A stretch of DNA of 64,000 nucleotides from Minisyncoccota bacterium (GCA_041674225.1 JBAYWG010000003.1:2582-66581); one strand, 5' to 3'; shown: positions 3,573 through 42,775, numbered from the stretch's first letter. Numbers and translations: made by a program. Notes: generated by a model from the letters alone, not told the origin.

Positions 3573-3842
3573 AATAAAATTTATAATAACAATTATATCA
3601 AAAAGTAAACTTATCATAAAGCAAGTCCCACAGACACTGACTGTATCATTAGAAATTTCCAAAATACAAACAAGATTTGCAAAAAAAATCTGACGGGATC
3701 AGGACTCGAACTACAGAAACGGCTTAAAATAAGACTTCTGCAAATTCAGCGAAAATCACAAAAGTTCGAGCCCATGACTCGTTCTAAATATCCGTTGCAA
3801 AATATAGCGATTTCATGAGACACGATCTGTCTCACATGACTG

Positions 3843-3913
3843 CTGCCCAACAAGGACTCGAACCTTGATACCTGGTACCAAAAACCAGTGTCCTACCATT
3901 AGACGATCGGGCA
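3843..3913 (-). tRNA. tRNA-Gln (anticodon TTG)
   Basis: Folded by hand. Acceptor TGCCCGA/TTGGGCA. D-stem GTCT/GGAC. Anticodon stem CTGGT/ACCAG with loop TTTTGGT. T-arm CAAGG-TTCGAGT-CCTTG. Discriminator G. CCA not encoded. Confidence 0.85.
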
Positions 3914-23217: not shown

Positions 23218-23299
23218 GCCGAGGTGGCGGAATTGGTAGACGCGCACGACTCAAAATCGTGTTCCGTAAGGGGTGAGGGTTCGATTCCCTCTCTCGGCA
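23218..23299 (+). tRNA. tRNA-Leu (anticodon CAA), long variable arm
   Basis: Acceptor GCCGAGG/TCTCGGC. Anticodon stem-loop CACGA-CTCAAAA-TCGTG. T-arm GAGGG-TTCGATT-CCCTC. Discriminator A. Confidence 0.85.
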
Positions 23300-23303
23300 C
23301 AAA

Positions 23304-25835: not shown

Positions 25836-25910
25836 TGGCGGGCCCACGAGGACTCGAACCTCGAACTGCGGTTTTGGAGACCGATGTTTTACCATTGAAA
25901 CTATAAGCCC
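25836..25910 (-). tRNA. tRNA-Trp (anticodon CCA), CCA encoded
   Basis: Acceptor GGGCTTA/TGGGCCC (two G-U pairs). Anticodon loop CTCCAAA. T-arm CGAGG-TTCGAGT-CCTCG. Discriminator G followed by CCA. Confidence 0.8.
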
Positions 25911-34345: not shown

Positions 34346-34429
34346 AAATGTCCGTTAATTTTACCAAACTACACCTTATTTACAAGGTATTTTTGTGGTG
34401 TAAAAACATTAATTTTAGTAAAATTTAGT

Positions 34430-34458
34430 TTGACAAAAGTTAAATATAATACATAATA
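34430..34458 (+). promoter_or_regulatory. Sigma70-like promoter (TTGACA-17-ATAATA) for 34505..34957
   Basis: Consensus -35 and near-consensus -10 hexamers. The RBS aaaggaaca precedes the ATG. Confidence 0.5.
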
Positions 34459-34504
34459 TAAATGTAAGATCTTAAACAATATACCAACGAAAGGAACACT
34501 TCAA

Positions 34505-34957
34505 ATGAGCAAGGATGGGATAGTGCCCGAAATTAAAGAAAAGATGATTCATAAAGTTGTCAGAGTAGATCGCACCCGAACTCCTCAAGAAACCTTGAAA
34601 GCCACTGGTCGAAGCTTATATGCTGACAACGAATCAATTATCAACACCATGCCCCGAGGCGAAAGCGATGAGGTGGAGGTGATCTTCTTTCAGGTCGGTC
34701 GTGTACTGACACATGAAGACCTAGCTCAGGAGTTCAACCTACGAGGTCTCAAACCCGCTGATTCTTACTCTCAAGCCAAAGCAAATGAAGATGATCCCAT
34801 ATTCGCCGAAGAACATCCCAATGGAACTCACTGGGAACACAATGGGAAATGGTGTTTCTCAACATTCGACGTTTGGGATGGTGAACAGGTCGTGGATGTT
34901 TCTTGCAGTGGCAGAGGGTGGCTTGAAAGCTGGTGGTTTGCCGGTATTCGCAAGTAA
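34505..34957 (+). CDS. Hypothetical protein (ORFan A) in GC-rich island
   Basis: 150 aa and soluble. W-rich C-terminus (GRGWLESWWFAGIRK). Local GC is roughly 45-47% against ~33% background. It has its own terminator at ~34995-35040. Confidence 0.45.
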   Translation: MSKDGIVPEIKEKMIHKVVRVDRTRTPQETLKATGRSLYADNESIINTMPRGESDEVEVIFFQVGRVLTHEDLAQEFNLRGLKPADSYSQAKANEDDPIFAEEHPNGTHWEHNGKWCFSTFDVWDGEQVVDVSCSGRGWLESWWFAGIRK

Positions 34958-35093
34958 GAAATACTTTGAGCTCAGTCCATAAAAATTTCAACCTCCTGTA
35001 TCAGACTACTTCGGTAGTACTGGTACAGGATTTTTCTTTTTAAATTTATATACTACCCCTCTAAAATAAAAATCTAGCCCGAAAGCTAGAGTA

Positions 35094-35606
35094 TCAGCCC
35101 GCTGGCTGAAAGAAAGCAAAAGCAGTTTCTGATGTCAGAACATACTGCTTTTGATCGATGTAAGCTTTCAGATTCAACTGCTTGGCTTGTTTTTTCATGC
35201 CAAGATGAATCTTCTGACCCTCCGAATCCAAAACCGGTTCGTGCATCATAATAATCCGTCGAAACTTCATATTTTCAATGCCAAGACTTTGCATCTCCAA
35301 ACTCAAGAGAAGAGCTACCTCAGGAGAAGTCTTGTGACTCGAAAATCCCAAAGCACTCGTCTCCTCAGAAATCTGCTTATACGTCGTCTTCACCGGATCG
35401 AATTCACTTCTGGAAATCAAGACAATGTTTCCTTTAGGAACTCCCACACCGGAGAAATCCAATTTTTGAATGATGTCTTTTGCATCACTAAAGACATTGA
35501 TACCAACAGGATTGAAACCGCGATTCCAATTATCCAAAGTACACAGCCAGTCTTCGCCAACCATGCCGGCCGCACCGCAAGTATAAATAGTATTAAGATC
35601 TTTCAT
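35094..35606 (-). CDS. Hypothetical protein (ORFan B) in GC-rich island
   Basis: 170 aa and soluble. It has its own terminator tctagc-tttcgg-gctaga plus T-run downstream on the minus strand. Confidence 0.45.
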   Translation of the reverse strand: MKDLNTIYTCGAAGMVGEDWLCTLDNWNRGFNPVGINVFSDAKDIIQKLDFSGVGVPKGNIVLISRSEFDPVKTTYKQISEETSALGFSSHKTSPEVALLLSLEMQSLGIENMKFRRIIMMHEPVLDSEGQKIHLGMKKQAKQLNLKAYIDQKQYVLTSETAFAFFQPAG

Positions 35607-35645
35607 TTAAACCTAATACAACCAAAATTGCGGTTTTCTGTATAC

Positions 35646-35674
35646 TTGACTATACTGCTTAAATATGTTAAAAT
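35646..35674 (+). promoter_or_regulatory. Sigma70-like promoter TTGACT-17-TAAAAT for 35778..36188
   Basis: The hexamers and 17-nt spacer are seen directly in the sequence. Confidence 0.5.
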
Positions 35675-35777
35675 ACAAGAGTAAAATAAGTTCTTTGAAA
35701 CGTAGTTGAGTTTGGAAGAAAGGTCGCAACATTCCGTTGTTATCTTTCAAATCAAACTTAAACTACAAAATACCACT

Positions 35778-36188
35778 ATGAAAACCACACTATCCAGCAT
35801 TTCATTCTATCCTGTCAAAGGCCTCACACTCAAAAACGACCTCGTTACGAAGGTTTTAGGTTCAGCAGACTGGAGATTTCAGAATGAGGGCTCATTTTGG
35901 AAGGGGGAATTCTACGTCCCTGGATATCCTCTCTTGATACCCAACAATGATATCGAGATCGAAGTCTTGGACAACGAAGTGTTTGTTATCCGTGATTCCA
36001 CGGGGAAAGTCACACTGAGAGGAGTCCTCTCCCATGTCGACAAACCAGAAATGGGCACAGCTTACATGTTCCAGAGTGCACAAGCTGTCGTATTTTGGCC
36101 CAACGAACAGAACCCCATTGGGGAAGGAGTCCAGAGTGATCACTCCCTCACAGGTTGCGTCACAGTGGTCTGGAAATTCAAAGAATAG
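35778..36188 (+). CDS. Hypothetical protein (ORFan C) in GC-rich island; start at internal Met MKTTLSS
   Basis: The track ORF is 35706..36188. Two terminator hairpins lie downstream, including 36370-36400 aaaaaggagacatttatgtctccttttt. Confidence 0.4.
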   Translation: MKTTLSSISFYPVKGLTLKNDLVTKVLGSADWRFQNEGSFWKGEFYVPGYPLLIPNNDIEIEVLDNEVFVIRDSTGKVTLRGVLSHVDKPEMGTAYMFQSAQAVVFWPNEQNPIGEGVQSDHSLTGCVTVVWKFKE

Positions 36189-36431
36189 TGGTAAACCCAC
36201 TCGGTGAAGTAACCGCAGAGTTCAAACCTCTTAAAACTTCAAACCTCCCGTACCAGCAATACTATGTAATGCTGTGCGGGATTTTTCTTTTTAGCTGCAT
36301 AAATTAATTAATATTACTTGTGAGTACATTGCGGAGCCGTCCCAAACGGCGAGCGAAACGAAAAACAAAAAGGAGACATTTATGTCTCCTTTTTGTTTTA
36401 TCGTGGGTACGAATAAGTAATATTAATTTAT

Positions 36432-37022
36432 TTACGCAACAAAAATACACAACCTCCTCCAAAACTCCTCAAACTTCCCCCTCTCCACAAACAAATTTTT
36501 CTTTATCCCCTTCTTTGTATCCGGATCGTTATACATAAACCCAGCAATATCCCCATCGTCATCTTTTTCAAAACCTGTAATCACAATCAAATGCGAAGAT
36601 TTATTTTGATCAAATCCCGCAGACACAGACACAACAACAGGTCTTCCTGCTTTCAACATTTGTGCAATTTTTTTAATCCCAGCTTTCGCCATCTTTGCAT
36701 CATAAATACTCGGCGTTCCAGAATTTTTTCCAAGACTCACCAACTGACTTTTAAATTCTTCTCTGTATGCAAAAATTCCACGGTTTCTAAAAATACGCAC
36801 AAGCGCTTCATGATCCCAACCATTTTCACCATACCCTCCGATTTTTACACCTTCATCAATTAACGCATCGATACTTTCATCATTGTCAGGATAAAAATAT
36901 TTGATAATCATCTTTGCACAAGTCACTCCGCAAGCACGAGAATGCCACTTCGGTTCTAACACATTTTGATATTGAGAATAATAAGGCACATCCAAAAAAT
37001 ACATGAGCTTATTATACGACAA
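36432..37022 (-). CDS. Papain-like cysteine peptidase, C39-like (Peptidase_C39_2/BtrH-like) family
   Basis: VPYYSQ...ACGVTCAKMI (Cys). Downstream His in SSHLIVITGF. About 190 aa, a typical domain size. Confidence 0.6.
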   Translation of the reverse strand: MSYNKLMYFLDVPYYSQYQNVLEPKWHSRACGVTCAKMIIKYFYPDNDESIDALIDEGVKIGGYGENGWDHEALVRIFRNRGIFAYREEFKSQLVSLGKNSGTPSIYDAKMAKAGIKKIAQMLKAGRPVVVSVSAGFDQNKSSHLIVITGFEKDDDGDIAGFMYNDPDTKKGIKKNLFVERGKFEEFWRRLCIFVA

Positions 37023-39404
37023 CTATCTCACCATCCAATCTTTTTGACTGTTTAAAACCTCTGAAACTTTTTCCATAATTTTATTTATCTCTTCATCAGT
37101 TAAAGTTTTTTCGTGCGACTGAAAAACAATTCTAAACGCGTATGAAACTTTTTCATCTTTCACGAATTTATCAAACAGGCGACTTTGCACCACAAGCTCT
37201 CCAGCATTTTCTTTAATCAAATTGAAAACAAAATCTTCTGAAATTTCTTTTGGCACCCATACAGCAACATCGCGCACAATAAAAGGATACACAGAAAATG
37301 CTTTATATTGTTTTGGATAAAAATCTTTTTGAAGTTTATAAAAACTTGTTGGTGAAACTTCTGGTAGTTTTTTAATTACTTTATCTAAATTAATTTCTGC
37401 TACTTTATCTGCAATTTGAAAATCTCCATCAGACAAACTGAATTTTGTTTTTAATTCTTCGATTGTTAGTTTTAAAGATTTTGCGTTTGAACTAGCAATT
37501 CCAAGAGTCCAAGCTTCGTCTGCAACGCAAAATACTTTTCCAATTTCGAAAATCTTAATTTCACTCAAACCAAGTAGATCAACATTTCTTGTATTGAAAT
37601 CCAAACTTTCTTTCAGTCCATCAGAAATATTCTTTCTCATGAAGCCTTTGTCTTTTGTTAATGGATTTGAAATCTCCACTTCACCCGCACTTCGGAGTGT
37701 ATATGTCATTGTATCTGTATATCCAAGATTCAAAAGAAAATCTGCAAACTCTAGCAAATAATAATGAGTTTTATCTACAACTACAGGACTTTCTCTTTTC
37801 ACTTCTTTACTTTGAATATTTTTATATCCATACACTCTCGCAATTTCTTCAATCAAATCCACAGTTCTACGAATATCAATTCGCTCGTCAGGAACTGCCA
37901 CTACGAATCTTTTTTCATTTTCATCAAAAATTCTTCCATAATAAACAACGTCTTTAAATTCAGGTGAATTATCTACATCTTCGATCACAACACCTTTATC
38001 ATCTGAACTAGTACAATGAATTATTTTTTCATCTCCTAAATAAACACCTAAATGATCAATTGGTATTTCTACTTTTGTACCGTCCATAAATTGTTTAGAT
38101 ACAGAATGTTCCGGTTCAACCATTGATTGAATCTCTGGATTATCTTTGAATTTATTTTGATTAGATTCACTTACCACGTGTTCATTAGAAAAAATAATAT
38201 CCCCTGGTTCCAAATCTTCTTTACTAATTTTTTCTGACCAAACTAATTGATCAATAGAAATTCTTGGAATTGATTGTCCTGACTGCAAAGCTGCATAGCA
38301 AGTCAAAGAAGAACAATCAAAAAACTCTGGGCAATCATAAAGAACTCTAGATCCAAACTTATAAGGCTTTCCTTCTAAACTTTTTAGAGTTTCAATAAAA
38401 TTATCTTTTGCTTTTACAATTTTATATTCAAAATTCAACTTACCGAAAATATCTTCGATTTCTTTTTCAGAAATATTTGTTCCTAAATATTTATTTACTT
38501 CTTCAACTGAAACACCAGTTTTATATTGCCCAGCTTTTCTAGGATAAATATCTACAATACTTCCAACTTTTGTATTGTCATCCGAAGCATACTTCAAAAG
38601 CATTTCTGTAAGTCGATTCATCGCAATTTCTGACCAAAGAGGTGTGATATCTCTCTCAAATCTTTTTGAAGATTCAGTATCAATTCCCAGAGCTCGACGA
38701 GTCTTACGCACAGTCACCGCATCAAAGTTTGCTGACTCAAGCAAAAGATTCACAGTTCCTTCTGCCACTTCAGCTTTCTTTCCACCTTTAATTCCTGCAA
38801 TTGCCAAAACATCACTTTCATCTGCAATCACCATTTCATTTCCTGCAAATTTAACTTCTTTATTATCAAGAGTTGTAAAATTAGTTTCTGCATCGGCACC
38901 TCGAACTAAAATTTTCTTTCCACTCAATTTATCAGAATCAAAAGCATGCATTGGTTGTCCCAAATCAAACATCACAATATTTGTACAATCCACAATATTA
39001 TTAATTGATCTTTGTCCGATTGCTTCCAACTTTTTTTTCAACACATCTGGAGACGGCCCAAACTTAACTCCACGAATTTCTCGTGCCACGTATCTCTTAC
39101 AATTTTTATCACTCACTTCCACAGAAAATTCTGTTTCAAAATCTACTCGACTCAATTCGTTTGGATATTTTTTCAAAGGAATACCAGCCAAAACATTTAC
39201 CTCTCTAGCGATTCCATAATGTGCAAAAGAATCATGTGCTCTGTTTGGTTGCACATCTATTTCATAAAGAAAATCATCACCATCTTGTTTTATAGATTCC
39301 ACTTCGTACGCACCAGCAGTCAAAATATCAGCCAGCTCTTTAGCTTCTGGAAGTTTTCCATCTAAATGTTCTTGAAGCCAATTGTGTGAAACTCGCATGC
39401 TCAT
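37023..39404 (-). CDS. pheT: Phenylalanyl-tRNA synthetase beta subunit lacking the N-terminal OB/tRNA-binding domain and carrying an inserted NlpC/P60 peptidase-like domain (aa ~335-495) between B5 and the B6/B7 catalytic-like module
   Basis: B3/B4, B5, the B6-7 block (VAVPDERIDIRRTVDLIEEIARVYGY) and C-terminal FDX-ACB are recognisable. The insert carries YDCPEFFDCSSL...GQSIPRIS.DQ...LEPGDIIF...HLGVYLGDEKIIHCTS, matching the NlpC/P60 Cys-His-His core. Confidence 0.85.
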   Translation of the reverse strand: MSMRVSHNWLQEHLDGKLPEAKELADILTAGAYEVESIKQDGDDFLYEIDVQPNRAHDSFAHYGIAREVNVLAGIPLKKYPNELSRVDFETEFSVEVSDKNCKRYVAREIRGVKFGPSPDVLKKKLEAIGQRSINNIVDCTNIVMFDLGQPMHAFDSDKLSGKKILVRGADAETNFTTLDNKEVKFAGNEMVIADESDVLAIAGIKGGKKAEVAEGTVNLLLESANFDAVTVRKTRRALGIDTESSKRFERDITPLWSEIAMNRLTEMLLKYASDDNTKVGSIVDIYPRKAGQYKTGVSVEEVNKYLGTNISEKEIEDIFGKLNFEYKIVKAKDNFIETLKSLEGKPYKFGSRVLYDCPEFFDCSSLTCYAALQSGQSIPRISIDQLVWSEKISKEDLEPGDIIFSNEHVVSESNQNKFKDNPEIQSMVEPEHSVSKQFMDGTKVEIPIDHLGVYLGDEKIIHCTSSDDKGVVIEDVDNSPEFKDVVYYGRIFDENEKRFVVAVPDERIDIRRTVDLIEEIARVYGYKNIQSKEVKRESPVVVDKTHYYLLEFADFLLNLGYTDTMTYTLRSAGEVEISNPLTKDKGFMRKNISDGLKESLDFNTRNVDLLGLSEIKIFEIGKVFCVADEAWTLGIASSNAKSLKLTIEELKTKFSLSDGDFQIADKVAEINLDKVIKKLPEVSPTSFYKLQKDFYPKQYKAFSVYPFIVRDVAVWVPKEISEDFVFNLIKENAGELVVQSRLFDKFVKDEKVSYAFRIVFQSHEKTLTDEEINKIMEKVSEVLNSQKDWMVR

Positions 39405-39405
39405 A

Positions 39406-40134
39406 TTAAAATTGATTATTAAATCTTAAGTCACCAGATTGCAACAAACGAATATCATCAATTCCGTGAAGCATCATTGCGATTCGATCCCATCCGAAAG
39501 CAAAAGCGTACCCTTGATACTCTCGCGGATTAACCCCACCTCTTTCCAAAACTTTTGGATGCAACATTCCCGCTCCCAAAACTTCAATCCATCCAGAATT
39601 TTTGCAAACAGAACAACCTTTTCCATCACACTTAAAACATGACATATCAACTTCCACTCCTGGCTCTACGAACGGAAAATATCCAGGGCGCAAACGCGTT
39701 GTAGTATTTTCTCCGAAAAGTTTTTTGAAAATACTTTCAATTGTATATTTCATATGACCAAGATTTAAATCTTTTCCAATCGCAGTACATTCAAACTGAT
39801 GAAAAACTGCTTCGTGAGTCGCGTCTGTAGTTTCGTTTCTATAAACTTTTCCAAAATAAAGAATCTTCAATGGCACTCCACGCTCTCTAGGACCTTTCAC
39901 TTGTCCAGCCGAAGTTTGAGTTCGAGCCAATTTTCCTGGAACATTTTTCAACCAAAAAGTATCTTGCTCATCTCGTGCAGGATGAGAGTCTGGCACATTC
40001 AGCGCGTCGAAGTTAAAAAACTCAGTTTCAATTTCTGGAATTTGAAATACATCAAAACCCATCTCATCAAAAGCTTCTAAAACTTGATGCATTATTTGGT
40101 TTAGTGGATGAATATGACCCTTTGGTTCGTTCAT
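39406..40134 (-). CDS. pheS: Phenylalanyl-tRNA synthetase alpha subunit, minimal form (catalytic core only, 242 aa)
   Basis: Class II motifs are present: FWL...GKVYRNETTDATHEAVFHQFE...FAFGWDRIAMMLHGIDDIR. Confidence 0.9.
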   Translation of the reverse strand: MNEPKGHIHPLNQIMHQVLEAFDEMGFDVFQIPEIETEFFNFDALNVPDSHPARDEQDTFWLKNVPGKLARTQTSAGQVKGPRERGVPLKILYFGKVYRNETTDATHEAVFHQFECTAIGKDLNLGHMKYTIESIFKKLFGENTTTRLRPGYFPFVEPGVEVDMSCFKCDGKGCSVCKNSGWIEVLGAGMLHPKVLERGGVNPREYQGYAFAFGWDRIAMMLHGIDDIRLLQSGDLRFNNQF

Positions 40135-40148
40135 GATTTAGAAGTTTA

Positions 40149-41123
40149 TCAAATTTCAGCTCGATATAAGTCTTGACCGTCTTTTACAAAGATTGTATTA
40201 CCATCTAGTTTAAAATCAGGTTTTACACCTTTAAAAATAGTTTGAACATTCGGTTTTGATCTATCATCGGCTTCTACAGCAAAAACATGTTTTCCTGTAG
40301 CCACAACAAACACATCGTTTCTATTTGGGAAAAAATCAAAACTTCGAATATCACTGTCTAAAGATATTATTATTTGATCTCGACAACCGCGAATATCACA
40401 GAAGAAAAATGGGGTCGACTGGTAATCCCCTGTCCATACCATATGAATATCTCCAGCCTCAAGCCACGCTATCATTTTACTATCTTCTCTCAAACCTTTT
40501 TTAGTTTCCAAATCTTTAATATTTAATTTCTCTAAGTATTCAGGGATTTTTATTTGAGTTGTCGAAGTAGCTTTTGTAGATGTTGATTTAATAATTTCTT
40601 TTTCAAAAACTAAAAGATTTTTATCTGGTGTTGTAGTAGATGTAAAAATATCTAAAGTTTCATCATATTCTTCATTTGCAACTTTTGTTGATGTAGCTTT
40701 TATCTTTGGATCTGTATTTGCCACAATACTAAACTTATCTATTTTTTCAAAAGGAATGTCTGTTGGCAACATCAAAACACGCGCTTCAGTAACAAGATTT
40801 GGATGTACAAACAATTCTTTATACCAAGTTGCATAACCTTCTTTCTCTACCCTTATTTTATAAGTCTCATTTGATTTTAGATTTTGTACTAAAATATTTT
40901 TTAATAAAACTCCACCAGACTCACTAAACTCATCATCGATAAACACATTTGCTCCAGATAAATCTGAGTGTACAAAAATACCTCCAGTCTTAACAAAAGA
41001 AAAATTATCCCAATCAACTCTATATCCAGAAGAATATGTTAGGAGAATTGGCACACCTGCTAAAAAAATAACTAGAAGCAAAATTAAAGAAGAAGATCTT
41101 TGTTTTTTTGATAAAGGTTTCAT
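40149..41123 (-). CDS. Membrane-anchored PEGA-domain protein
   Basis: N-terminal TM. SGANVFIDDE...YKIRVEKEGYATWYKE is PEGA-like. Confidence 0.45.
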   Translation of the reverse strand: MKPLSKKQRSSSLILLLVIFLAGVPILLTYSSGYRVDWDNFSFVKTGGIFVHSDLSGANVFIDDEFSESGGVLLKNILVQNLKSNETYKIRVEKEGYATWYKELFVHPNLVTEARVLMLPTDIPFEKIDKFSIVANTDPKIKATSTKVANEEYDETLDIFTSTTTPDKNLLVFEKEIIKSTSTKATSTTQIKIPEYLEKLNIKDLETKKGLREDSKMIAWLEAGDIHMVWTGDYQSTPFFFCDIRGCRDQIIISLDSDIRSFDFFPNRNDVFVVATGKHVFAVEADDRSKPNVQTIFKGVKPDFKLDGNTIFVKDGQDLYRAEI

Positions 41124-41131
41124 TATTGAAT

Positions 41132-42697
41132 CTATTTTAACTCACTTCTGTGTTTTGGTGTAACCCAAAATCCCATATACTTTCCAAACATCAATCTTGT
41201 TTGTGAATCCAATCCTGGAATCGCTCCAAAAATAATAATTGTAAAAGGAATAAACAACCATTGTGCACCCATGATAAACCATTTTGTTTTTCGCCACTTA
41301 ATGTATTCCGGCATTTTTGGAATCAATGTGAAAGCAATCACAGCAGAAAGCACAAGACCTCCCATGGCTAAAATCATTAAGTTTCTTGTGATAATCGGAA
41401 GGTTGTATGAAAGTACAGTTGTTCTAAACTCTGAACCTCCTAAAATCAGTGGCAGCCATCCTAGAAGCAGAATCACAAGCGGGTTTGTAGCCAAAGACCA
41501 AAAACCTTCAATCTGAATTAGACTGTATTTAATTTTGTCCTTTAGAGCAATCTTCTTGTGTTTAATAAAATTGAAAAGCATGTAAGGCACATTTTCTACT
41601 CCCCAACTCCATCGTCGGTGTTGTTTGTAAATGTTTACCATTGTCTGCCAAAATGTAGGAGCTAAGTTTGCGTCCATAGAAACAGGATATGAAATTGGGA
41701 TTACTTTATAATTTCCATCATGCGCAAAAAATAGATTCCAGAAAATTCTTGAATCTTCAGATACCATATTTTTTTGCCAATAACCGATCTTGTGAAGAAC
41801 AGCGAAAGGAACTGAGTGAGAAGAAAAAGTTGTAAGTTTTTCTGGACGCTCTTGTTGAATCATTTGCCAGAAAGTTGAAGACATCGCAGCAACACGAGAA
41901 ACTGCAGGAGCTTCCCAAATATTGTTGTTGTAAAGTGGAACTGGTTGATACGAAGCATGAAAACGATCCTCTGTTGTAAGGAAATGCCATGTTAGACAAA
42001 GTAGATATTGTTCCCAAGCGATGGTGTCGACATCAAAAGCAGATACCAAAACATCTTCGTAAGCCAAATTATTTGGATCAAGAACTTCTATTCTTGCTCT
42101 CTCTGCAGCATAAGAAATATTTGAACCCTTTCCGGCCATTTCTCCTACAGTGTCAGCAGGATGTCTTGTTGTAAGAAAATGAGCAAATTCATTTTCATAT
42201 TTAGATTTCATTTCTTGCGCGAGAGCCCAAGGTTCTTCACCCGCTCTTTCTTCAGCGGCTAGTACAACAATAATTTTCTTTTTGTCGTATTTTGTTTTTA
42301 AAAGAGATTCAATACCACCTTCAACCACACCTCTATCTTCTTTATAGAAAGGCAAAATAATCATGTGATAAATATGATCGTATTTGTGACCTTCCAATTC
42401 TTTTGACCAATCAACTTTTATATTATGCAAAAGACGCTTCCAGTTGTGTCTATGGTGATATGAAAGATGCATTGTTTTCAAAAGCCAGTACAAATCGAAA
42501 GCAATAATGAAAAACGCTGCCCAAACAGGTTTGAATATAGAAAAAATAACAATGATTAGAATTGTTCCCCAAGAAAGTGCTCCTGGTAAAATCTCTAGTA
42601 ACCGAAAAAGTTTTCTGTCTTTTCCCTCTAAATGAAATGCGTGTCCTGCACTAAATCCTGGTGTTTTTATATACTCCTCATTTATATCGGAATTCAT
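41132..42697 (-). CDS. Processive family-2 glycosyltransferase (cellulose/chitin-synthase-like) integral membrane protein
   Basis: Multiple N- and C-terminal TM helices. DVD (DxD). QHRRW (QxxRW) motif. Confidence 0.55.
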   Translation of the reverse strand: MNSDINEEYIKTPGFSAGHAFHLEGKDRKLFRLLEILPGALSWGTILIIVIFSIFKPVWAAFFIIAFDLYWLLKTMHLSYHHRHNWKRLLHNIKVDWSKELEGHKYDHIYHMIILPFYKEDRGVVEGGIESLLKTKYDKKKIIVVLAAEERAGEEPWALAQEMKSKYENEFAHFLTTRHPADTVGEMAGKGSNISYAAERARIEVLDPNNLAYEDVLVSAFDVDTIAWEQYLLCLTWHFLTTEDRFHASYQPVPLYNNNIWEAPAVSRVAAMSSTFWQMIQQERPEKLTTFSSHSVPFAVLHKIGYWQKNMVSEDSRIFWNLFFAHDGNYKVIPISYPVSMDANLAPTFWQTMVNIYKQHRRWSWGVENVPYMLFNFIKHKKIALKDKIKYSLIQIEGFWSLATNPLVILLLGWLPLILGGSEFRTTVLSYNLPIITRNLMILAMGGLVLSAVIAFTLIPKMPEYIKWRKTKWFIMGAQWLFIPFTIIIFGAIPGLDSQTRLMFGKYMGFWVTPKHRSELK

Positions 42698-42699
42698 AT

Positions 42700-42775
42700 T
42701 GGAGCCACTTGTCAGGCTCGAACTGACGACCTATTGTTTACAAAACAATTGCTCTACCAACTGAGCTAAAGTGGC
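42700..42775 (-). tRNA. tRNA-Thr (anticodon TGT), CCA encoded
   Basis: Acceptor GCCACTT/AAGTGGC. D-arm GCTC-AGTTGGTA-GAGC. Anticodon loop TTTGTAA. T-arm GTCAG-TTCGAGC-CTGAC. Confidence 0.85.

Follow-up and report, generated by a model that had tools for sequence, protein, structure and literature searches.

A predicted NlpC/P60 cysteine peptidase nested in the phenylalanyl-tRNA synthetase beta subunit of Paceibacteria

The phenylalanyl-tRNA synthetase locus and its nested domain

The DNA considered here, hereafter the window, is a stretch of 64,000 nucleotides (nt) from a Minisyncoccota bacterium (GCA_041674225.1 JBAYWG010000003.1:2582-66581), to which all coordinates refer unless a locus handle precedes them; comparisons drew on these 64 kilobases (kb) and on 20-kb stretches of related genomes. 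It harbours the two genes of phenylalanyl-tRNA synthetase (PheRS), pheS and pheT, which lie on the minus strand with a single nucleotide between them, pheS upstream. The sequence of PheT, the beta subunit, is interrupted by a domain of the NlpC/P60 (C40) family of cysteine peptidases (P60 in what follows), and a gene for a second putative peptidase, of the Peptidase_C39_2 type (C39_2), comes next. The original prediction, made from the window, had set the open reading frames (ORFs) at 37023..39404 for pheT and 36432..37022 for its neighbour, beside a minimal pheS, and these frames were found again, with a pheS reduced to the class II core. The features of the locus are the following, with lengths and positions in amino acids (aa):

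39406..40134, minus strand: pheS, PheRS alpha subunit, 242 aa, class II catalytic core only
37023..39404, minus strand: pheT, PheRS beta subunit, 793 aa
38586..39101, minus strand: B3/4 editing domain, aa 102-273 (Pfam B3_4, E-value 2.3e-59)
38421..38540, minus strand: B5 winged-helix domain, N-terminal half, about aa 289-328, aligned with 2rhs_B up to residue 445
37911..38420, minus strand: predicted nested NlpC/P60 (C40) cysteine peptidase, aa 329-498, 170 aa
38313..38315, minus strand: codon of the predicted catalytic Cys364 (FDCSS), Cys in 214 of 216 family members
38052..38054, minus strand: codon of the predicted catalytic His451 (DHLG), His in 214 of 216
38016..38018, minus strand: codon of the third triad residue, His463 (IIH), His in 208 of 216, the others having N, Y, D or G
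37824..37910, minus strand: B5 domain, C-terminal half, aa 499-527, 'RFVVAVPDERIDIRRTVDLIEEIARVYGY', aligned with 2rhs_B from residue 451 onward
37488..37721, minus strand: Pfam-matched part of the B6/7 catalytic-like module, aa 562-639 (PF17759, tRNA_synthFbeta, E-value 3.2e-07)
37035..37295, minus strand: B8 FDX-ACB anticodon-binding domain, aa 704-790 (PF03147, E-value 2.6e-21)
36432..37004, minus strand: Peptidase_C39_2-type peptidase gene, 190 aa from the ATG at 37004; the maximal ORF (196 aa) reaches 37022

The sequence points to PheT as the housekeeping PheRS beta of a Paceibacteria (Parcubacteria, candidate phyla radiation) bacterium. It scores 411.5 bits against TIGR00472 (pheT_bact), above the equivalog cut-off of 402.65; a Foldseek search with its structural model returns bacterial PheRS beta chains as top matches, at E-values of 1e-47 to 1e-38, the AlphaFold2 model of the whole protein having a mean predicted local distance difference test score (pLDDT) of 90.0 and a predicted template modelling score (pTM) of 0.66. 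Its partner PheS matches Pfam tRNA-synt_2d (E-value 1.6e-82, aa 4-242 on profile positions 12-246 of 246) and TIGR00468 (aa 5-242 on positions 68-322 of 324). The nearest loci, L001 and L013, where PheS is 93-95% identical to that of the window, place it in Paceibacterota. Residues H265, E334 and T354 of Escherichia coli PheRS beta, which we take to be those of the editing site, align with H153, E223 and T243 of PheT, all three invariant in 40 homologs; the editing-site residues of PheT appear, on this alignment, intact, which implies that the insert does not replace editing. With pheS beside it in an operon, these residues in place and an anticodon-binding domain present, the synthetase parts look functional as far as sequence can tell.

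The domains of PheT follow each other as B1, B3/4, N-terminal half of B5, P60, C-terminal half of B5, B6/7 and B8. The same succession of B1, B3/4, B5, B6/7 and B8 is found in the beta subunits of the bacterial (alpha-beta)2 enzymes of T. thermophilus (1PYS/2IY5), S. haemolyticus (2RHS) and E. coli (3PCO), the domain scheme used for the comparison being that of PMC3275996. In contrast with these enzymes, PheT of the window has no B2 domain, its alpha partner has no N-terminal coiled coil, and a peptidase of 170 aa sits in place of a five-residue loop of B5. Pfam and the alignment with 2rhs_B both bear out the early description of a PheT that keeps B3/B4, B5, B6-7 and FDX-ACB and is devoid of the OB domain: no tRNA_bind (PF01588) match was found by Pfam in PheT of the window, and aa 44 pairs with residue 161 of the S. 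haemolyticus protein (2rhs_B), hence the conclusion that PheT lacks B2, the OB domain. It is retained in a few family members (P0080, P0085).

The site of the insertion can be given precisely. Pfam recognizes B5 in two separate stretches of PheT (E-value 1.1e-15), the second, aa 494-527, covering profile positions 34-67 of 67, and in the 2rhs_B alignment aa 328 of the query pairs with residue 445 and aa 500 with residue 451, so that some 170 aa stand in for a five-residue beta-hairpin loop. The insert had at first been placed between B5 and a block reading VAVPDERIDI, at 37920..38400; that block is the second half of B5, the insert thus lying within B5, and the limits, which were close, are now refined to 37911..38420. 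In PMC3275996 B5 is called 'DNA binding-like' and nothing more, no part in aminoacylation being stated for it, and this makes its hairpin a plausible permissive site for an insertion.

Judged by alignment and by model, the P60 domain keeps a canonical papain-like fold and the Cys-His-His triad of its family. Every motif quoted in the original prediction as a full NlpC/P60 signature is there, FDC364SS, GQSIPRIS, PGDIIF, DH451LGVYLG and IIH463, and Pfam NLPC_P60 matches aa 345-410 at an E-value of 4.8e-11, with 43 bits against a gathering score of 23. The proposed triad is conserved at the frequencies listed above (214, 214 and 208 of 216 aligned P60 sequences) in a family whose members are down to about 35-40% identity. 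C364 and H451 do not vary among 40 full-length homologs, H463 is conserved in at least 90% of them, and many other residues of the P60 motifs are conserved as well. The AlphaFold2 model of the insert alone is confident, with a pLDDT of 92.2 and a pTM of 0.88, and in it Cys364 stands at the start of helix 36-46, as expected of NlpC/P60 enzymes. A profile of the insert family finds 7cfl_A in the PDB over its full length (E-value 3e-25), and the best Foldseek match of the insert is the same protein, the Clostridioides difficile autolysin Acd24020 (7cfl), with a target TM-score (TMt) of 0.88-0.89, followed in order by 4hpe, MepS, CwlO, LytE and 3h41. There are 65 PDB matches at E-values of at most 0.001, and the 50 that were listed are all NlpC/P60-type domains.

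With the P60 DL-endopeptidases (7CFL, the CwlT-like 4HPE, E. coli MepS, Bacillus subtilis CwlO and LytE, B. cereus 3H41) the insert shares, besides fold and triad, the motifs 'PY.xG', 'FDCS(S/G)', 'IPRxxxDQ', 'GDLxF', 'HVGxY' and 'xIH'. It differs from them by its low identity to solved structures, 16-26%, and by a family-specific extra beta-hairpin, 'ExxEFxxGT', of at least 16 residues, located between 'GDLxF' ('GDIIF' in the window) and 'DHxG'; the sub-clade of the window has a further variable segment in the same region. Unlike the secreted P60 hydrolases, it is nested in a cytoplasmic enzyme and is without signal peptide, SH3b or LysM domain. It is also acidic, with a median net charge of -5 in the family, negative in 91% of the sequences and reaching -15 in the window.

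Distribution across the class and reduced forms in sister lineages

The nested domain is shared far beyond this genome. Each of the best 120 homologs of PheT, 41-94% identical to it, carries PF00877; their sources are Patescibacteria, Parcubacteria, Pacebacteria or Yonathbacteria, and databases name them 'PheT-related protein' or 'C40 family peptidase'. An exhaustive search with the insert profile over 1.84 billion cluster representatives (50%-identity clusters) gave 164 representatives at E-values of at most 1e-30, and nearly all single-stretch matches are 770-820 aa in length and carry the insert around aa 330-490. The insert alone had no match in an index of 5.8 billion proteins, seemingly a limitation of the word index, as the profile search gave thousands. 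Full-length PheT proteins with the insert number 208 among the sequences retrieved, and the same site is occupied in more than 200 sequences or sequence clusters. Scanning one genome per GTDB species yielded 121 loci. The 80 retained belong to Paceibacterota, Campbell-, Nomura-, Terry-, Vogel- and Lloydbacteria, with the complete genome CP011215.1 among them. On this comparative evidence P60 is an insertion made long ago in the beta-hairpin of B5, and a trait of the whole class Paceibacteria/Parcubacteria.

Two observations on the records belong here. Many 'TPA_asm' entries of metagenome-assembled genomes with a locus of the Paceibacteria type are titled 'uncultured Candidatus Saccharibacteria bacterium', probably a generic label, and such titles are thus not grounds for placing the insert in Saccharibacteria. 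Then, at L027:1745-3826, L071:8996-10924 and L073:3372-5417 the frame containing P60 is only 640-700 aa long, though it does not run into a contig end; the pheT genes concerned may have been truncated or frameshifted, or may be caught midway through reduction.

Sister lineages have gone further. There we find free-standing proteins of 200-240 aa, called mini-proteins below, which consist of P60 between the two halves of B5, followed by a short tail of diverged sequence, an assembly that we write B5::P60. Examples are P0134, P0152, P0205, P0222, P0224, P0249, P0188 and the proteins of loci L003 and L088. They start directly with the B5 strand; their ORFs are intact in all cases; the catalytic Cys and His and both halves of B5 are present in the ten that were examined, the third His in nine, with Gln in the remaining one. 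Automatic annotation sees NLPC_P60 only in most of them, with a faint B5 match in one. Several of them neighbour a single-chain PheRS of about 380-390 aa made of the tRNA-synt_2d alpha core and FDX-ACB. The positions of these genes, then the gene orders, are:

L081:846-1505: mini-protein
L082:10001-10600: mini-protein
L083:9519-10187: mini-protein
L087:8803-9504: mini-protein
L088:6146-6826: mini-protein
L003:1253-1978: mini-protein
L087:7655-8803: single-chain PheRS
L083:8312-9481, minus strand: single-chain PheRS
L003:108-1256: single-chain PheRS
L088:5001-6149: single-chain PheRS
L087 and L003: single-chain PheRS (382 aa), mini-protein, C39_2, gyrB; the mini-protein start overlaps the PheRS stop
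L083/L084 and L088/L089: single-chain PheRS, mini-protein, gyrB
L081: mini-protein, C39_2, gyrB
L082: ruvB, then mini-protein with overlapping C39_2, at an unrelated position; no PheRS gene within 10 kb
L090 and L092: single-chain PheRS, gyrB; neither peptidase at this position

The single-chain enzyme is widespread in Parcubacteria, where its clusters at 67% identity or more number at least 120, and most sources name it 'alpha subunit' or 'hypothetical'. Like mitochondrial PheRS (human FARS2, 3CMQ) and the 'PheS-related' protein SrmL, it joins an alpha core to FDX-ACB in one chain; unlike them it is bacterial, adjoins a B5::P60 remnant of pheT, and scores just under the cut-offs of both models, chains of 382-389 aa having 221-247 bits for TIGR00469 (pheS_mito) and 235-257 bits for NF051887 (SrmL). 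In these sister lineages B5::P60 is apparently, from the sequences compared, the only surviving part of pheT, a separate gene at the locus of pheT. Between L087 and L083 the single-chain enzymes are 61% identical and the mini-proteins 35%, the triad being kept, which argues for a long retention under selection. No mini-protein has another mini-protein as its closest match, some full-length insert always being closer, and a crude neighbour-joining tree scatters them; the single-chain PheRS linked to mini-proteins, at 61% identity, look like a single clade. A domain of PheT living as an independent protein has a precedent in CtdA, a free-standing relative of B3/B4 (PMC12268091). CtdA derives from the editing domain and acts on mischarged tRNA, while the mini-proteins derive from B5 and carry a peptidase.

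The C39_2 neighbour and the surrounding genes

Downstream of pheT, the assignment of the next gene to a C39_2-type peptidase stands, with Pfam Peptidase_C39_2 (PF13529) at an E-value of 3.5e-15 and 57.3 bits against a gathering score of 24. Its start has moved: from the orthologs and the start codon context, the gene most likely begins at the ATG at 37004, 18 nt past the stop codon of pheT, and not at the TTG at 37022. Counting from this ATG, Cys25, His65, Ser126, His138, Gly144 and Trp182 are invariant in the 23 orthologs aligned, and Asp160 is conserved in at least 90% of them. A signal peptide would not fit in any of these 23, where the conserved 'VPYYSQ' begins at about residue 4-10. The best solved relative is 3erv_A, a weak partial match (E-value 2e-06). 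Conserved Cys, His and Asp are common to this protein and to Peptidase_C39_2 as known from PF13529, from the putative C39-like peptidase of Bacillus anthracis 3ERV and from an endolysin domain; it differs from them in being small, stand-alone and without signal peptide. With no PF03412 match in the window protein, and standing alone, it is not the C39 of bacteriocin-processing ABC exporters; one ortholog has a sub-threshold PF03412 score. In the literature, Peptidase_C39_2 is a type of catalytic domain of phage endolysins, and joins NLPC_P60 in multicatalytic ones.

Across the 80 loci, tblastn recovers the order glycosyltransferase, PEGA protein, pheS, pheT, C39_2, gyrB. Of the 80, 49 have a C39_2 homolog downstream of pheT and in the same orientation; when only the 69 loci with 600 nt or more available beyond pheT are counted, the figure is 48. 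In 32 of the 49 it directly adjoins pheT, with an overlap or a gap of at most about 110 nt. Where genes intervene, C39_2 stays beside gyrB, not pheT (L029, L072 and L057 for example).

Just upstream of pheS, 40149..42697 encodes a membrane glycosyltransferase of 521 aa (Glyco_trans_2_3) and a PEGA-domain protein of 324 aa, syntenic with pheS-pheT in 30 and 23 of the 80 loci; a cell-envelope gene pair is thus conserved beside the PheRS operon in many related loci. On the other side, gyrB and the C39_2 gene are separated by 2.1 kb (34350..36430) with a GC content of 0.43-0.50, against about 0.30-0.38 around. In L001, the closest relative, the corresponding stretch measures only about 880 nt, and L043 has, near gyrB, a homolog of one ORF of the segment at 43% identity. 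The segment may have been inserted in this lineage specifically. Its three ORFs, and the tRNA genes that are the sole Rfam matches in the window, are:

34505..34957, plus strand: ORF without Pfam match
35094..35606, minus strand: ORF without Pfam match
35706..36188, plus strand: ORF without Pfam match
42700..42775, 3842..3913, 23218..23300 and 25836..25910: tRNA genes Thr-TGT, Gln-TTG, Leu-CAA and Trp-CCA

At gathering thresholds, Rfam finds no leader or T-box upstream of pheS, and the PADLOC models of defence systems match neither PheT nor C39_2 nor a mini-protein.

What the peptidases may do

Since B5::P60 survives without the rest of PheT, the module seems to be selected independently of aminoacylation, and comparative genomics suggests a self-contained enzyme whose function is separate from that reaction. 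Neither peptidase has an export signal, and both should therefore act in the cytoplasm. The most likely reading, to which we give a probability of about 0.45, is that the pair cleaves cell-wall-type peptides there, the nesting in PheT being a tolerated fusion. In such a history P60 would have entered the B5 beta-hairpin of a housekeeping PheRS beta anciently; in sister lineages the (alpha-beta)2 enzyme would have given way to the single-chain PheRS, with B5::P60 kept as a separate gene, often with C39_2. By family resemblance P60 would be a gamma-D-glutamyl-diamino-acid (DL) endopeptidase; C39_2, in phage endolysins, is likewise a domain of cell-wall hydrolases; and the substrates of the pair would be imported or recycled muropeptides, or wall precursors. 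Salvage or turnover of peptides would fit organisms with very little biosynthetic capacity, and the nesting would ensure co-expression rather than create a new synthetase mechanism. The early suggestion of a moonlighting cell-wall amidase survives here in part, as a cell-wall hydrolase fits this explanation, although of the DL-endopeptidase type and not an amidase; nothing was found in support of the other suggestion, that of a regulatory protease.

Several facts weigh against peptide cleavage in the cytoplasm. Specificity is deduced by resemblance to solved enzymes at the low identity given above, and the extra 'ExxEFxxGT' hairpin, beside the active site, could change it. The P60 relatives matched are annotated as cell-wall hydrolases and autolysins, characterized P60 cell-wall hydrolases are mostly secreted, and a cytoplasmic location makes the intact cell wall an unlikely substrate. 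L090 and L092 have neither gene at the position considered, so that the module is dispensable in some lineages, and in about 30% of the loci pheT is followed directly by gyrB, with no C39_2. Furthermore, gene order is conserved over the whole neighbourhood, and the linkage between P60 and C39_2 may thus be partly inherited synteny, not a functional tie. Finally, several mini-proteins adjoin a single-chain PheRS devoid of editing domain, as a role related to PheRS would also predict. The original prediction spoke of two papain-fold peptidases coupled to an essential synthetase: their adjacency stands, and the coupling was overstated, given that P60 survives without PheT and that C39_2 is absent from so many loci.

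The main rival is precisely a role in the chemistry of PheRS, which we consider unlikely. P60 would act as a thiol hydrolase or acyltransferase on aminoacyl-tRNA or aminoacyl-adenylate, with B5 helping to hold the tRNA, for additional proofreading, for example, or to hand the aminoacyl group on to another acceptor. The NlpC/P60 superfamily does include acyltransferases. The module is kept at the PheRS locus through deep divergence, it adjoins a single-chain enzyme that lost the B3/4 editing domain, both halves of B5 are found in every mini-protein, so that B5 may share in the function, and one mini-protein has a weak, sub-threshold LRAT match (E-value 0.0014). Yet sequence and fold are canonical for peptidoglycan DL-endopeptidases, 'IPR..DQ' and 'DCSS' included, and the acidic insert is ill-suited to RNA binding. 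The full-length PheT has its normal editing site, the mini-protein and C39_2 of L082 follow ruvB far from any PheRS gene, and some loci with a single-chain PheRS (L090, L092) do without the module. That B5::P60 should be a new catalytic partner of PheRS, kept as a free subunit, its cysteine acting on aminoacyl-tRNA or aminoacyl-adenylate for a second proofreading or for aminoacyl transfer to a cell-wall precursor, we find rather improbable.

The two following explanations are less likely. Both peptidases might be extracellular, serving as autolysins or in attack on the wall of a host, once released, for example by lysis or by unconventional export. The closest solved relatives of P60 are indeed autolysins and cell-wall hydrolases, C39_2 and NLPC_P60 are endolysin domains, and Patescibacteria live on the surface of host bacteria (PMC13622651). 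A domain buried within a cytoplasmic, essential, multi-subunit enzyme is hard to reconcile with such a role outside, which looks doubtful to us: the C39_2 orthologs leave no room for a signal peptide, the mini-proteins open with the B5 strand, and Pfam finds no cell-wall-binding domain in PheT or in the proteins of the sister loci.

Very unlikely, in our opinion, is an insert that has no catalytic function, whether it serves for structure or docking, in the manner of RipD and other inactive P60 proteins, or is a remnant in decay. Activity is a prediction only, a few members have substitutions in the triad, and the module has been lost in some lineages. Against this, the triad is kept in 96-99% of the 216 sequences despite their divergence, many active-site motifs outside the triad are invariant, and the ORFs of the mini-proteins are all intact. 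As for an assembly chimera, which the original prediction had named as its own possible undoing, or an intein or other selfish mobile element, nothing was found in favour of either and both can be dismissed: the same insertion site, in a class-wide distribution, recurs in over 200 sequences obtained independently in many studies, the GC content is flat across the borders of the insert, the reading frame runs through it, and the fold is that of P60, not of Hint or of a homing endonuclease.

In the searchable literature, explored in full text, no account was found of a PheT with a peptidase, of SrmL, or of these bacteria having a single-chain PheRS; the one paper on Patescibacteria that mentions PheRS uses pheS as a counter-selection marker only. 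The parts belong to known families, and it is the nested architecture, its conservation across the class and the series of mini-proteins that are undescribed there. The original prediction did not recognize the architecture as a described one; it is not specific to this genome, hundreds of public sequences bearing it under generic names.

Across a large class of bacteria, uncultivated and with reduced genomes, an essential synthetase houses a cell-wall-type peptidase. Among bacterial aminoacyl-tRNA synthetases, no second case is known to us of an unrelated enzyme domain that is apparently active. The series that goes from PheT with its nested P60 to a single-chain PheRS with a mini-protein, then to a single-chain PheRS alone, looks like the stepwise dismantling of a multi-domain synthetase, and it points to a mitochondrial-type single-chain PheRS widespread in bacteria. 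The halves of B5 that flank P60 in the mini-proteins are a molecular fossil, which could serve as a rare-genomic-change marker for the phylogeny of Paceibacteria. Should the module turn out to be a catalytic partner of PheRS, it would be the first one with a peptidase fold to have been recruited into the chemistry of aminoacyl-tRNA synthetases; should the pair of peptidases salvage cell-wall peptides in the cytoplasm, the finding would bear on how these symbionts feed on their hosts.

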